Source: a virus
UHGV virus genome: UHGV-0128382
Reading direction: 5' to 3' (one strand)
Length of the DNA stretch: 31,080 nucleotides
Every line of letters starts with the position of its first letter. Positions within the stretch are counted from its first letter, which is position 1. Made by a program: the position numbers and the translations under genes. Positions 18,170 through 21,172 of the stretch are shown here, piece by piece. Below the pieces are notes generated by a model that made no database searches, was not told the DNA's origin, and was given only the letters and a program-made list of their open reading frames with translations.

Positions 18170-18198
18170 AGCCAGCCTCCCCAAAGGCTGGTTTTTTT
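18170..18198 (+). terminator. Strong rho-independent terminator downstream of Q (tR'-like)
   Basis: 'agccagcc' - 8-nt loop - 'ggctggt' followed by TTTTTTT. Confidence 0.75.
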
Positions 18199-18226
18199 CT
18201 AATAAGTATTATTTCGGGTAGGGATT

Positions 18227-18751
18227 TTATTGTTTAACCCATAATAATTCATTGACATTGAATCCCAACTTTTGAGCGGTTCGCACATAGTCTGCTTTTA
18301 CTTTATCTGGAATAGTTGGGGTCCTTGCCAGAATCCATAGGTATTCTCTGTTCGGACCACTGACAAGAGCATACTTATACTCATCATCCAGTTTGATTAC
18401 ATTATAGCCACCATAGAAGGGGCCAAAAAACGAAACCTTCAACGCTGCAGTTTTAGTATCTCCAGTAAAGTATGCTTTACCTTCGCTCTCGCTCCATTTA
18501 TTTTTCGTTGGATCGTATCCACGGTTAAGTACACGAATCCCTCCGTCGTTCCGTTTTCCATAAGTAGCGCTGACCTGTTCCAGACCACGTTCGAACCGGT
18601 TCTCGAGGCGAGCTATTTCATACCACTTTCCGAGGTAGCGGTTGGCGTCAAAATTTGTAATCGGCTGCACACCTTTAGGTGGTGTCGGGGCCTTACATGC
18701 TATAAGAGTGAAAGAGAGTGCAATGCCAGTCAACACAGGCCATAACTTCAT
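18227..18751 (-). CDS. Blc-like bacterial lipocalin, outer-membrane lipoprotein
   Basis: 174-aa ORF; lipobox LIAC after a signal peptide; NFDANRYLGKWYEIARLENRFERGLEQVSATY...EGKAYFTGDTKTAALKVSFFGPFYGGYNVIKLDDEYKYALVSGPNREYLWILARTPTI aligns closely with E. coli Blc as recalled. Confidence 0.85.
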   Translation of the reverse strand: MKLWPVLTGIALSFTLIACKAPTPPKGVQPITNFDANRYLGKWYEIARLENRFERGLEQVSATYGKRNDGGIRVLNRGYDPTKNKWSESEGKAYFTGDTKTAALKVSFFGPFYGGYNVIKLDDEYKYALVSGPNREYLWILARTPTIPDKVKADYVRTAQKLGFNVNELLWVKQ

Positions 18752-18943
18752 AATAAATCCTGTACTTTTGATAGTTGAGAGTAAGTATGAAAGATAGATG
18801 ATTACGACCGATCACTTAAAGAACTTTCATACTATATTAGGAATAGTCCATAACAGAAAAATTGTCAGTGATGACGCCAGAAAGGCAATTTATTCCGTGC
18901 ACTACACAGTTTATGTGTTAATGAATTAGTCAAGGGGGAGGAT

Positions 18944-19903
18944 ATGATAAAAAAACCTGTGATTGGAATCAGCGGTTGTCTGGCCGGTTCTGCTGTTCGT
19001 TTTGATGGTGGTCACAAAAGAGCTGACTTTTTAATGGACAAATTAGTGGAATGGGTAACATTCAGACCAGTATGTCCGGAAATGGCTATAGGGCTGCCAG
19101 TTCCGCGTCCTGCTCTACGTCTTGTGCGCTCGACGCAAGGAAATATACGGATGTGTTTCAGCCACGACCAGAATGAGGATGTGACAGAGAGAATGACAGA
19201 GTTTAGTCGTTCTTATATGGACAAATTAAAGGATGTATCGGGGTTTGTGGTTTGTGCTAAATCTCCCAGCTGTGGCATGGAGCGCGTGCGTGTCTATGAT
19301 GAAAATGGTAATCGAGGTCGTAAAGATGGAGTGGGACTATTTACGAGCACTTTGATGGAAAAGTTTTCCTGGCTACCGGTTGAAGAGGATGGGCGATTAC
19401 ATGATCCAGTGCTTCGTGAGAATTTTGTTGAAAGAGTTTTTGCTTTGCATGAGCTCAATCACCTTTACAAGGAGAAATTATCAAGAAGAGAGTTATTAGC
19501 TTTTCATAGTCGTTATAAGCTTCAGTTGTTGGCGCATAGTCAGGCAGGCTATAAAGATATGGGACCATTTGTGGCTGCAATACACGAGTGGGCGGACCTT
19601 GAATCATACTTTGAGGTGTATCGTGATAAGCTGATGGCGATTCTCAGAAAACCTGCATCACGTAAAAATCACACGAATGTGATGATGCATATACAGGGGT
19701 ATTTTAGTAACTACTTAAGTACACGCCAGCGTAAAGAGTTGAGCGAGGTTATACTTAACTATCGTTCTGGCACATTACCTCTTCTTGCGCCGTTGACTCT
19801 GCTGAAGCATTATCTGGGTGAGTATCCTAATGATTACTTGCTTACACAGAATTACTTCGATCCCTATCCGGACGAACTGGCTCTAAGACTGATGGTAAAT
19901 TAA
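18944..19903 (+). CDS. DUF523/DUF1722-like two-domain protein (YbgA / TudS-related); family assignment from memory
   Basis: 319-aa ORF with strong GGGGGAGG RBS; N-terminal IGISGCLAG...CPE motif resembles DUF523; C-terminal half resembles the YbgA-like domain. Confidence 0.5.
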   Translation: MIKKPVIGISGCLAGSAVRFDGGHKRADFLMDKLVEWVTFRPVCPEMAIGLPVPRPALRLVRSTQGNIRMCFSHDQNEDVTERMTEFSRSYMDKLKDVSGFVVCAKSPSCGMERVRVYDENGNRGRKDGVGLFTSTLMEKFSWLPVEEDGRLHDPVLRENFVERVFALHELNHLYKEKLSRRELLAFHSRYKLQLLAHSQAGYKDMGPFVAAIHEWADLESYFEVYRDKLMAILRKPASRKNHTNVMMHIQGYFSNYLSTRQRKELSEVILNYRSGTLPLLAPLTLLKHYLGEYPNDYLLTQNYFDPYPDELALRLMVN

Positions 19904-20254
19904 TTGTATGCGATATCATCCAAAAGGATGAGTTCCTGCATGCAGGATATTTACAATCGTAAAAACTACACTATGATACCCAGAGTGTCAGTTTGTATAA
20001 AAACTCTGTTTACGCTGAAGAAACCATTGAGATGCAACTTAAAGTTGGTAAACATGCCAGTCAAAATATATAATATTATGATTCCACGCAGCTATATATA
20101 ATATAACAGATTGGTTTAATAATTTGTCTTTGTGAGTTAAATACATAATTTTATACTTGTGATGCAATGAGATTTTCCTTATTGTTGAACTGGCGAATAT
20201 TGATTTTCCACCTATACTTACTTGGTGTAACCCCAATGATATCAGGTGGATAAT

Positions 20255-20979
20255 ATGCCATACATATGTTCTATCATTTTGGTGTTGAACTCGTTTGATG
20301 TCCGAATTGGTAAAGAAGATATTTTATTTAAAAAAGGAAGTGCTGTTCTCATTGATTAAAATTTAAAAGATTTTTTTCATCAAATATAGATCATGCAATG
20401 ATCGTAGATGTTGAAGAGAAAACAGTTAATGATTTCTTTAAAAGCAACACACTCTCACCTTTTTCTGTAAGAAGGTTTTATCCGGCATACTTGATGGTGG
20501 AATGTGAAGATTTTTCATTGTTAAAGAACTTGATTGCATGCTTGAATTGTGATGGCAGAACTGTGGATTTTGTTAGAAATCAAATATCACTTGCATGTCT
20601 TGCTATCTTATCTTCAGAGAAAATAGTGCAAAGTTTTTTATTTGGATGTCTTAATAGTTTAGGAAGTAAAGTTAAGGCTATTATTCACACGGATATATCT
20701 GCAGCATGGAGACTTTGTGATATATCTTCAAGACTGTATCTGAGTGAAAGTCTGTTAAAAAGAAAATTAAAGCACGAAGGCTTATCATTTAGTAAGTTAA
20801 TTCTTGAAGAGCGAATGGTGATGGCGGAAAGGTTATTAAGCTACAATTTATATTCTGTTGGAAAAGTTGCTGAGATATGCGGTTATGAAAACACGTCATA
20901 TTTTGTAAGTGTTTTCAGAAGATATTTTGGTGTTCCTCCCCATCAATATTCATCAAGATTTTTTTTAGAAAAGACATGA
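20255..20979 (+). pseudogene. AraC-family regulator (AppY/EnvY-like), apparently frameshifted or split
   Basis: A 34-aa frame (20255-20359, GGTGGA RBS) MPYICSIILVLNSFDVRIGKEDILFKKGSAVLID resembles the AppY N-terminus; the 193-aa ORF 20398-20979 in another frame resembles the remainder including the C-terminal AraC HTH (GYENTSYFVSVFRRYFGVPP); frames meet at 20353-20359, next to a T7 run. Confidence 0.5.
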
Positions 20980-21045
20980 TGTAACGTGATGCGTTTTAAT
21001 GATTTTGTAATTTTCGTATTTGATAATTGTATGATGCTTTCAGCT

Positions 21046-21077
21046 ACGCCAGAATAATCGCTGGCGTTTTTCTTTTT
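21046..21077 (+). terminator. Rho-independent terminator after the AraC-family gene
   Basis: 'acgccag' - 8-nt loop - 'ctggcgt' followed by TTTTTCTTTTT. Confidence 0.7.
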
Positions 21078-21172
21078 GAATAGATGTTCAAGCCTTACGC
21101 TAATGTAACTTCTATACCTTTCCTCTTCGTTCCGAACCGTGTACACCATCCGTTATTTGCGGAGGTGAGGCT

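Follow-up and report, generated by a model that had tools for sequence, protein, structure and literature searches.

A probable composite moron cassette with a lipocalin gene, rudS and a decayed regulator gene between Q and the holin gene of an Escherichia coli lambdoid prophage

Comparison with the K-12 prophage DLP12 and with related phages supports the view that the interval between the antiterminator gene Q and the holin gene of the viral genome UHGV-0128382 (31,080 nucleotides, in the following termed the window) is a phage-borne cargo module. We consider it probable that this module is a composite moron cassette, located in the late-operon leader of an E. coli lambdoid prophage and made up of two units of separate history. 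The first unit would be a divergent blc2-rudS gene pair that was captured jointly from an enterobacterial chromosome; the second would be a regulator gene of the Psr/AppY/YdeO type, which is very rich in AT, is followed by a terminator of its own and is inactivated in the window copy. The parts of the cassette are already in the literature, namely blc as a lambda moron, RudS of phage 1H12 as a tested enzyme and Psr-type regulators as genes downstream of Q. As each part has been published, the window is an unremarkable instance of an already described kind.

Results

The slot between Q and the holin gene

In the window, Q is followed by a terminator, blc2 on the minus strand, rudS, an AraC-family gene, a second terminator and an S21-type holin gene (Table 1); all features described in an earlier note on this DNA lie where that note placed them, with deviations of a few bases at most. 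The note had also proposed that the cargo occupies a site at which relatives carry other cargo. This was borne out by K-12 DLP12, where nmpC fills exactly the same slot, with quuD (Q) on one side and essD (holin) on the other. QuuD is 87.5% identical to the Q protein of the window, and essD shares 81% nucleotide identity with its holin gene, such that the two slots have their Q type and S21-type holin in common while the cargo differs. In blastn comparisons of the window with DLP12, matches were confined to 17400-18053 and 21162-21389, with homology on the essD side picking up again at 21162. Since homology is lost from 18054 to 21161, the module takes in the last 18 nt of Q as well as the promoter/terminator leader; in phages of the same Q type that lack the cassette, homology likewise breaks at 18053.

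These sharp breaks at 18053 and 21162, between flanking genes that hold nmpC as other cargo in DLP12, are as expected of a moron, as is the deviant base composition of the interval. The AT-richness attributed to the region was evident from GC contents of 0.44 (blc2), 0.43 (rudS) and 0.32 (AraC-family gene with the preceding spacer), the range of 0.32-0.44 contrasting with 0.51 in the lysis/late genes. Promoter-like matches in a scan numbered 13 versus 11.3 in shuffled sequence, i.e., there was no excess. Other lambdoid prophages use the same neighborhood: in prophage Sp4 of EHEC Sakai, psrA lies downstream of Q with two genes in between, and stx of Stx phages is Q-to-lysis cargo as well, the window differing from the latter in that one cargo gene is antisense to late transcription.

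Table 1. Features of the Q-to-holin interval and its borders (window coordinates).
Feature	Position	Strand	Basis
Antiterminator Q gene, Q21 family, 125 aa	17694-18071	+	PF06530, 173 bits
Candidate late-promoter region (pR')	18043-18112	+	Scan match and manual reading, both weak
Mosaic cargo module	18054-21161	none	No homology to K-12 DLP12 (blastn)
tR'-like intrinsic terminator	18170-18200	+	Hairpin 18170-18193 and T-run, 99 nt past the Q stop codon
blc2, Blc-family outer-membrane lipocalin lipoprotein (predicted), 174 aa	18227-18751	-	Lipocalin_2 (PF08212), E 7e-44
Divergent blc2/rudS intergenic region, 192 bp	18752-18943	none	Alignment with Citrobacter and Enterobacter spacers
rudS, TudS(DUF523)-DUF1722 fusion, predicted tRNA 4-thiouridine desulfidase, 319 aa	18944-19903	+	PF04463 and PF08349
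Possible 3' remnant of an oppositely oriented AraC-family gene, encoding DIIGVTPSKYRWKI	20202-20243	-	AppY C-terminus match
Psr/AppY/YdeO-like AraC-family regulator, pseudogene here	20255-20979	+	Alignment with intact 243-aa genes
Intrinsic terminator between regulator gene and holin gene	21046-21075	+	Hairpin 21046-21067 and T-run
S21-type class II holin, first lysis-cassette gene	21173-21388	+	PF04971, E 3.5e-35

Late leader and terminators

The Q protein distantly matches the solved Q21 structure 6P18 (E 1.9e-8), and a Q21-family gene with an intrinsic terminator within ~100 nt is the arrangement of a Q21-type cassette. This terminator, which had been recognized as tR'-like ahead of the cargo, consists of a 9-bp stem with 5 GC pairs followed by T7 (dG -14.9 kcal/mol, z -3.6). 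Two weak candidates for pR' were noted, TGGAGA-18-AATAAT at 18043-18072 from the promoter scan and TTGCTG-17-TAACAT at 18084-18112 as read by eye; the TAACAT of the second could represent a sigma-dependent pause element instead of a -10 box. The candidate region is 91% identical to that of phage 1H12, with dS values of 0.20-0.30 for the flanking genes. DLP12 carries no late-promoter annotation, and the leader stretch of the window is without DLP12 homology. The distal terminator has a 7-bp stem with 5 GC pairs and a T-rich tail (dG -12.1 kcal/mol, z -2.45) and is kept in Lambda_2E9 and strain M114.

The lipocalin gene blc2

The description of the minus-strand gene as encoding a Blc-like lipocalin lipoprotein held. 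Its product scores 316 bits against the NCBIfam Blc model NF007786 (cutoff 267; model positions 1-174 of 176), matches the Blc crystal structure PDB 3MBT (E 3.5e-69) and has a lipoprotein signal peptide with the lipobox L-I-A-C (MKLWPVLTGIALSFTLIA-C19). Closest among known systems are E. coli Blc (b4149) and the blc moron of lambda-like temperate coliphages, which Mathieu et al. (Nat Commun 2020, PMC6969025) listed for more than half of 19 lambda-like infant-gut phages; the window gene likewise encodes a Blc-family lipoprotein. The 60% identity to E. coli Blc suggests that the product resides in the outer membrane and may bind lysophospholipids. As its product shares only 60% identity with the host Blc, against 80% with the lipocalin that is linked to rudS in Enterobacter and C. 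sedlakii, blc2 is a paralogue taken up with rudS rather than a copy of E. coli blc. The gene is under purifying selection (dN/dS 0.06 versus 1H12), with 78 of 79 viral loci carrying an intact copy.

rudS and the divergent spacer

The middle cargo gene had been described as DUF523/DUF1722-like. Both domains are present (PF04463 at residues 7-149, 138.5 bits; PF08349 at residues 192-309, 137.2 bits), and we amend the assignment to RudS, a predicted tRNA 4-thiouridine (s4U) desulfidase, the protein being 93% identical to RudS_vir of phage 1H12 (gp66, H3V29_gp66). The two share the 319-aa TudS-DUF1722 architecture, Cys12/44/110 and the place between blc and an AraC-like gene downstream of Q, but represent separate alleles (dS 0.30); Salmonella ORF319 (STM1389) is a related RudS. 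C12, C44 and C110, which correspond to the [4Fe-4S] ligands Cys12, Cys44 and Cys110 of RudS_vir (Table 1 in PMC11417400), were invariant in an alignment of the window RudS with the Lambda_2E9 protein, a 1H12-type allele. The catalytic residues reported for RudS_KT are Glu51, Ser111, Ser113 and Arg60 (PMC11417400), and the window protein has E46, S107, S109 and R55, as positioned by offsets from the ligand cysteines rather than by structural alignment. rudS was intact in all 79 viral loci with a dN/dS of 0.11, demonstrating purifying selection; for blc2 and rudS alike, these ratios derive from comparisons across alleles with dS 0.2-0.3 (0.30 for rudS versus 1H12).

Overexpressed in E. coli, RudS_vir lowers tRNA s4U (Jamontas et al., NAR 2024, PMC11417400). 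Among the RudS enzymes tested there, it gave the weakest tRNA desulfidation despite good soluble expression, and on 4-thiouracil its lag was the shortest; none of these enzymes allowed growth on thiouracil of the kind seen with TudS, and RudS overexpression shortened the growth delay caused by UVA. That study handled the viral rudS as an isolated sequence, with no discussion of its late-operon position or partner genes.

The spacer that separates blc2 and rudS is 90.6% identical to that of 1H12, without a gap. In the spacer alignment, a -10-like CATACT for blc2 is conserved on the minus strand (18784-18789), and a TATATT box is common to this spacer and the Enterobacter blc-merR spacer. Both genes may thus have their own promoters within these 192 bp. 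Conservation here exceeds the synonymous rate, which suggests that promoters serving the lysogen state have been retained.

A decayed AraC-family regulator

For the third cargo gene, described as an AraC-family regulator gene followed by a terminator, the helix-turn-helix and the terminator were recovered, although the gene is not intact. Relative to the 243-aa genes of Lambda_2E9, 1H12 and cluster P0010, codon 35 has changed from TAC to a TAA stop (20357-20359), and the loss of 1 nt from a T8 run has left T7 at 20371-20377, shifting the frame. The residual ORF at 20398-20979 (193 aa) corresponds to the 3' part of the 243-aa gene and keeps the C-terminal double helix-turn-helix (HTH_18, E 6e-15; HTH_AraC, E 1e-11). 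RefSeq labels the equivalent gene 'frameshifted' in strains M114 and 144. Among 77 assessable viral loci, the regulator was disrupted in 17 (22%), mostly at the T8 run and also by IS insertions, the other 60 having the intact 243-aa form.

Over 235 aa, intact alleles share 39% identity with Sakai PsrA and 30% with AppY. With PsrA, PsrB and PatE of EHEC and AppY of DLP12, which are prophage-encoded regulators of the YdeO/GadX group, the intact form has in common the length of ~240 aa, full-length similarity, a very low GC content and residence on prophages, and psrA of Sakai Sp4 likewise lies downstream of Q. The window regulator differs as a distinct lineage that falls under every NCBIfam cutoff and is broken here; with the YdeO model it reached 113 bits against a cutoff of 348 (positions 1-233 of 253), and is therefore not YdeO itself. 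The regulator (32% GC) has a history separate from that of the blc2-rudS pair. Between alleles, identity falls to 66% in the rudS-araC spacer, versus 91% in the other spacers. On the opposite strand of this spacer, DIIGVTPSKYRWKI weakly resembles the AppY C-terminus (64% over 14 aa; the E value of 0.009 refers to a very small search space).

Chromosomal source of the blc2-rudS pair

Species-representative genomes encoding a RudS 60-76% identical to that of the window had a divergent lipocalin gene upstream in 41 of 62 cases, the lipocalins being ~69-82% identical to the blc2 product. Lipocalin gene and rudS are separated by ~0.9-1.5 kb in 38 of these 41 loci and are directly adjacent, as in the phage, in two. 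The single annotated spacer, that of E. hormaechei, holds a merR/mlrA-like and a transthyretin-like gene, both missing from the phage copy. The locus in Enterobacter and Leclercia (blc2 - merR/mlrA-like - transthyretin-like - rudS) shows the same divergent orientation and has -10-like spacer boxes in common with the phage version, and C. sedlakii presents the variant with adjacent genes. The phage copy differs by its lower GC content and by a DNA identity of ~70%, which indicates that the direct donor is not among the sampled genomes. Since the divergent pair is conserved in Enterobacter and Citrobacter chromosomes, blc2 and rudS appear to have been captured together.

Distribution in phages and E. 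coli

The cassette is present in the isolated phages 1H12, Lambda_2E9 and IdasGreatGrand, and at least 80% of the island in 12 isolated phages; 1H12 has the Q-blc-rudS-araC-holin order of the window. Q-blc-rudS spacing was invariant in 80 IMG/VR viral contigs, and rudS was tied at this spacing to a single Q and leader allele in each of the 79 viral loci in which Q is included. The cassette was found on three backbones and at two attachment sites: its prophages adjoin ybhC in strain 144 and argU in M114, and that of the window sits on an HK97-like head module. Of 5426 complete E. coli genomes, 985 carry the full island and 1047 the blc-rudS pair, the latter figure contrasting with the statement, made in the primary paper (PMC11417400) and in reviews, that E. 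coli is without RudS. K-12 lacks the cassette, as does the E. coli representative genome in a GTDB scan. The copies found in Escherichia adjoin Q and holin genes.

Discussion

According to the model we favor, the intervening MerR/MlrA-type regulator and the transthyretin-like gene would have been left behind when blc2 and rudS were captured. The rudS product would act as an iron-sulfur enzyme that converts 4-thiouridine in tRNA to uridine. rudS and the regulator gene are co-oriented with late transcription, and both are situated past the Q-controlled leader terminator and ahead of the holin gene, so that Q-modified polymerase on its way to the lysis genes would have to transcribe both, which would parallel late transcription across stx in Stx phages. 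Higher expression of the plus-strand cargo upon induction may thus be expected, as judged solely from position and orientation. In the lysogen, promoters in the conserved 192-bp spacer would drive blc2, whose direction opposes that of late transcription, and probably rudS as well, and the terminator at 21046 would shield the holin gene from such cargo transcription. The most likely selected effect of RudS would be a lowered tRNA s4U content and, as a consequence, a blunted growth arrest under near-UV, both in the lysogen and during UV-triggered induction.

It is quite possible, if on balance doubtful, that the cassette serves lysogenic conversion only, with blc2, rudS and the intact regulator expressed from their own promoters to the benefit of the host, which would gain envelope repair, near-UV tolerance and acid-stress regulation, and with read-through at induction having no selected role. 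The moron anatomy (deviant GC content, own terminator, conserved spacers) speaks for this, as do the frequent classification of blc as a moron in infant-gut phages (PMC6969025) and the regulation of host physiology by Psr, PatE and AppY known from the literature; yet late transcripts that begin upstream of 18170 would inevitably run through rudS on induction, and the MerR-type control of the source locus is absent. Conversely, RudS might be a late function of benefit to the phage, akin to an auxiliary metabolic gene, that Q switches on after induction, which is often caused by UV, any advantage for the lysogen being incidental. Host tRNA would be stripped of s4U8, and the near-UV s4U8-C13 cross-link with its stringent response could then not throttle late protein synthesis. 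We regard this reading as unlikely overall, although several observations suit it: rudS is oriented with the late operon, past both the leader terminator and the antisense blc2; its linkage to one Q and leader allele is invariant; the native MerR-type regulator was dropped on capture; and RudS overexpression cuts the UVA growth delay (PMC11417400). Against it stands the spacer, conserved above the synonymous rate, which suggests retained lysogen promoters, and the orientation of blc2 antisense to late transcription, so that one of the two captured genes, at the least, is no late gene.

Of the enzymes tested, RudS_vir ranked last on tRNA and first on free 4-thiouracil (PMC11417400), so that its main substrate may not be tRNA, and the phage enzyme could act mainly on free thiolated bases and nucleotides (4-thiouracil, 4-thio-UMP), like stand-alone TudS, in salvage or detoxification of tRNA breakdown products instead of erasing s4U on intact tRNA. 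We consider this improbable: RudS_vir nonetheless lowered tRNA s4U, no RudS enzyme conferred TudS-like growth on thiouracil, and the DUF1722 tRNA-binding domain is kept under purifying selection. That the cassette is a neutral hitch-hiker on a successful Q and leader allele would accommodate the frequent decay of the regulator, including the pseudogene in the window, and is strongly disfavored by the intactness and low dN/dS of blc2 and rudS across diverged alleles and by the retention of all RudS catalytic residues. The earlier note had itself named an observation that would speak against phage cargo, a conserved chromosomal block of the same three genes with phage genes inserted around it. 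For the three genes no such block was found, the cassette occurring in phages and at different sites; a block does exist for blc-rudS only, in Enterobacter, Citrobacter and Leclercia. In these other genera, Q, holin and rusA genes were not found beside donor-type loci, which makes the block a likely source of the cargo rather than a refutation. A resident island of this kind is hardly conceivable in Escherichia, where viable phages carry the cassette, where it was found solely beside Q and holin genes and at different attachment sites, and where K-12 and the GTDB representative lack it; isolated phages, attachment sites and head modules refute it.

Despite statements that E. coli lacks RudS, prophages bring rudS to 19% of complete E. 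coli genomes, and near-UV and s4U findings made in K-12 may fail to apply to many natural isolates. The regulator gene decays repeatedly, by way of its T8 run and IS insertions, next to blc2 and rudS neighbors that remain intact. With blc-rudS recognized as a pre-existing chromosomal pair that lost its MerR-type regulator and came to lie in a Q-controlled late leader, prophage induction and tRNA modification can be connected in a concrete way that is open to experiment. If late, Q-dependent synthesis of RudS proved true, about one-fifth of E. coli strains would differ from K-12 in near-UV physiology by virtue of a prophage, and, although we rate the chances of this as rather low, a phage-encoded eraser of a tRNA modification would be wired into the late operon.

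The exchanged unit between Q and the holin

The window has the layout of a complete-looking E. coli lambdoid prophage (see the table), and its early region is 99.9% identical in a prophage adjoining ybhC in E. coli strain 144. Homology to DLP12, the K-12 prophage that carries nmpC between the two homology breaks, ends at 18053, within the last Q codons, and is regained at 21162, 11 nt ahead of the holin start; 18053 is also the break in all other phages that have this Q type but not the cassette. These two breaks define the swapped unit as the late leader plus three genes. The earlier note had described here a terminator after Q, a minus-strand Blc-like lipoprotein gene, a DUF523/DUF1722-like gene, a second, strong terminator and an AT-rich composition, and all of these were recovered, the GC content being 0.44 for blc, 0.43 for rudS and 0.32 for the regulator gene versus 0.51 for the late genes. 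Its AraC-family gene held in part: an ORF and the terminator behind it are present, but the gene is broken in the window. Its proposal of a cargo hotspot agrees with our comparison of the Q-to-holin interval, which is occupied by nmpC in DLP12 and by the cassette in other phages.

Features of the window and their coordinates
Feature	Position	Strand	Remarks
Lambda-type integrase	50-1120	minus	
exo/bet, cIII thermoregulator, sieB, S24 repressor			left to right after the integrase
cIII thermoregulator	5604-5662	minus	Rfam Lambda_thermo, 88.5 bits, well over the gathering score
Replication genes O, P			
Inverse autotransporter	12354-15905	plus	1183 aa; IAT_beta domain, Big_1/Invasin_D3 repeats; between P and ybcN
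ybcN, ninE, ybcO, rusA, ylcG			
Q	17694-18071		
Terminator after Q	18170-18200		dG -14.9 kcal/mol
blc (lipocalin)	18227-18751	minus	
rudS (DUF523+DUF1722)	18944-19903	plus	319 aa
AraC-family C-terminal motif	20202-20243	minus	14 residues
Regulator gene	from 20255	plus	start by alignment
TAC-to-TAA change	20357-20359		in the regulator gene
T7 run	20371-20377		in the regulator gene
ORF in the regulator gene	ends 20979	plus	193 aa
Second terminator	21046-21075		dG -12.1 kcal/mol
Holin, S21 type	from 21173		
DUF1327 gene	21393-21707	plus	between holin and lysozyme
Lysozyme, Rz			
HNH endonuclease	22803-23153	plus	just ahead of the terminase genes, as is usual in HK97-type layouts
Large terminase, HK97-like head genes			

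A repeat search of the island returned only short two-copy matches that we judged to be chance, none of the three cassette proteins matched a PADLOC defence-system model, and PHROGs placed all three in phage families of unknown function, which did not inform their roles. tRNA genes, which Stx phages have in this slot, were found nowhere in the window. At the Rfam gathering threshold the cIII thermoregulator, outside the cassette, was the sole match in the window, and a permissive scan of 17600-21400 gave only sub-threshold, terminator-like chance matches. The inverse autotransporter is a second large cargo gene of the window; its counterparts in strains 144 and M114, which carry related prophages, encode about 1302 aa, and the shortfall of about 357 nt in the window copy looks like the loss of an Ig-like repeat.

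Identity of the cassette genes

The window lipocalin matches the NCBIfam Blc model over its full length (316 bits, cutoff 267), carries the lipobox LIAC and shares only 60% identity with E. coli's own Blc; on sequence criteria it is a Blc paralogue. blc has been reported as a moron, i.e., a phage cargo gene, in over half of a collection of 19 lambda-like coliphages from the infant gut that includes 1H12 and Lambda_2E9 (PMC6969025).

The middle gene is RudS, defined as a fusion of a TudS desulfidase with DUF1722 that removes 4-thiouridine (s4U) from tRNA (Jamontas et al., NAR 2024, PMC11417400). One of the enzymes tested in that study, RudS_vir, is H3V29_gp66 of phage 1H12. The 1H12 order Q (gp64), blc (gp65), rudS (gp66), AraC-like gene (gp67) and holin (gp68) is that of the window, and the gp66 product is 93% identical to the window RudS, which keeps Cys12, Cys44 and Cys110 and, judged by position, also Glu46, Ser107, Ser109 and Arg55. 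When overexpressed, RudS_vir lowered tRNA s4U, less so than the other RudS enzymes, and it showed the shortest lag on free 4-thiouracil (PMC11417400). This comparatively good activity on the free base leaves room for a salvage role of phage RudS on free thiolated bases, an alternative less likely than the tRNA desulfidase role that defines the family.

The regulator gene had to be read against the intact 243-aa alleles of Lambda_2E9, 1H12 and protein cluster P0010. In this alignment the window gene has a TAC codon changed to TAA and a run of seven T residues where intact alleles have eight, and the 193-aa ORF at this place is the out-of-frame remainder. RefSeq labels the equivalent genes of M114 and 144 as frameshifted as well. 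Intact alleles share 39% identity with EHEC PsrA (Sakai ECs_1087) across 235 residues and 30% with AppY, and the YdeO model matches them end to end with a score under its cutoff; judging from these alignments, the gene belongs to the prophage AraC-like group. psrA is ECs_1087 in Sakai prophage Sp4 (PMC13502914), where it lies downstream of Q, two genes on, so a regulator of this type occupies the slot in other lambdoid prophages as well. No AraC gene was found in Sp6, to which a wrong mapping of OI-50 had pointed, and no Psr or PatE label occurred among the names of the protein clusters for AraC homologues. Just upstream of the regulator gene, on the opposite strand, lies the AraC-family C-terminal motif DIIGVTPSKYRWKI, with 64% identity to the end of AppY; it may be what is left of an older AraC gene of opposite orientation.

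Spread, selection and decay

The cassette is complete in 12 sequenced phages, and the spacing of Q (-1250), blc (-714 to -193) and rudS is invariant in 80 IMG/VR viral contigs. It rides on an HK97-like head in the window and occurs in E. coli at ybhC with a lambda-like head (strain 144) and at argU with intD (M114). A conserved chromosomal block of the three genes with phage genes inserted around it, the arrangement that would have spoken against the cargo reading, was not what we found: the cassette sits in phages, at varied sites and with varied heads. Of 5426 complete E. coli genomes, 985 have the full island and 1047 the blc-rudS pair, at up to three copies per genome. Two short GTDB contigs binned as 'Candidatus Nanosynbacter' also carry the E. 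coli phage cassette, almost certainly through contamination of the bins: L068 has Q and blc with a 5' fragment of rudS (99-100% identical at the amino-acid level), and L058 a 3' fragment of rudS together with the AraC-like gene and the holin gene (82-93%).

Comparison of the window alleles with those of 1H12 gives dN/dS values of 0.06 (blc), 0.11 (rudS) and 0.11 (Q) at dS 0.13-0.30, and of 0.21-0.26 for the regulator. Intact copies account for 79/79 rudS and 78/79 blc genes in viral loci; of the regulator genes in the 77 loci that could be assessed, 60 are intact and 17 disrupted. The T-run length is changed in 11 of these 17 (T7 in eight, T6 in two, T9 in one), the other six showing a different frameshift, insertion of IS1 or IS5, or a deletion associated with IS1. 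The T8 homopolymer corresponds to codons 39-41, and its variation among related loci (L079-L158) could reflect a hotspot of strand slippage or a phase-variable switch, or stem partly from sequencing errors in the homopolymer. Three viral contigs (L131, L140, L142) have IS1 at the same point, equivalent to window position 20274 just inside the regulator start, with part or all of the gene deleted; elsewhere it is disrupted or replaced by IS1 (L145) or IS5 (L150), or has an IS beside it (L151, IS2/IS3-type; L157, IS3-type). blc and rudS are untouched in all these loci.

Probable chromosomal origin of blc and rudS

When one genome per species was scanned, 62 genomes yielded RudS proteins with 60-76% identity to that of the window, among them genomes of Citrobacter, Enterobacter, Leclercia, Kluyvera, Klebsiella oxytoca, Pectobacterium and others; the E. 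coli representative had none. The search for nearest chromosomal relatives, which the earlier note had suggested, turned up a divergent blc-rudS pair in 41 of these 62 genomes, where rudS is preceded, on the other strand, by a lipocalin gene with about 69-82% identity to that of the phage. A spacer of about 0.9-1.5 kb parts the two genes in 38 of the 41; the sole annotated one, from E. hormaechei, contains genes for a merR/mlrA-like regulator and a transthyretin-like protein. The pair adjoins directly in C. sedlakii and a second Citrobacter, with gaps of 187 and 228 bp, compared with 192 bp in the phage, and -10-like boxes are common to phage and chromosomal spacers. Annotated neighbours are ordinary chromosomal genes, e.g., for a BCCT transporter or a pseudouridine synthase, and homologues of Q, holin or rusA were found in none of the chromosomal lipocalin-rudS loci.

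The regulator gene stands outside this block, given its far lower GC content and the more divergent rudS-araC spacer (66% identity between phage alleles versus about 91% for other spacers). From these comparisons we conclude that blc and rudS were probably captured together from an enterobacterial chromosome and that the regulator came in by a separate event. With DNA identity of only about 70%, none of the sampled genomes is the direct donor.

In the E. hormaechei locus (L013, 4660-5898) the spacer encodes a MerR-family protein with MlrA-type helical and C-terminal domains and a transthyretin/HIUase-like protein ahead of rudS, and similar spacers occur in 37 other species; remnants of neither gene were found in the window. 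The MerR-family gene may encode the original control of the locus, perhaps responsive to light or stress, which is missing from the phage copy.

Probable expression and function

Q is of the Q21 family, with a good terminator 99 nt downstream. rudS and the regulator gene read in the direction of the lysis genes and lie between the leader terminator and the holin; blc is antisense to all of these, and the second terminator precedes the holin. Late-promoter candidates came from one scan (18043-18072) and from manual inspection (18084-18112), neither of them confident, and no Q-binding or pause element was located with confidence in the window. Phage 434 was rejected as an annotated source of the late promoter, as the match is 434B, whose Q and lysis region is DLP12-derived and hence uninformative.

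Cassettes of this kind and the single parts of this one have precedents, RudS_vir and prophage Psr-type regulators both having been published; the present analysis refines this picture in a few points and adds one hypothesis. Within a literature search of incomplete coverage, we found no paper on the three genes as one cassette in the late leader, on a joint chromosomal origin of blc-rudS or on cassette prevalence in E. coli; a query on the gene combination brought up only an unrelated Klebsiella paper, and the LF82 prophage paper leaves the three genes unmentioned.

In a lysogen, blc and probably rudS would be expressed from promoters in the conserved spacer, the native MerR-type control having presumably been left behind on capture, and the terminator at 21046 would insulate the holin. 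Upon induction, any Q-modified polymerase that reaches the holin would have to transcribe rudS on its way, as with stx in Stx phages. E. coli has been stated to lack RudS (PMC11417400 and a 2026 review); the presence of the pair in about a fifth of complete genomes contradicts this, the statement being true of K-12, not of the species. In strains that carry the cassette, RudS would lower tRNA s4U and so may blunt the near-UV cross-link and growth delay described for the RudS family (PMC11417400).
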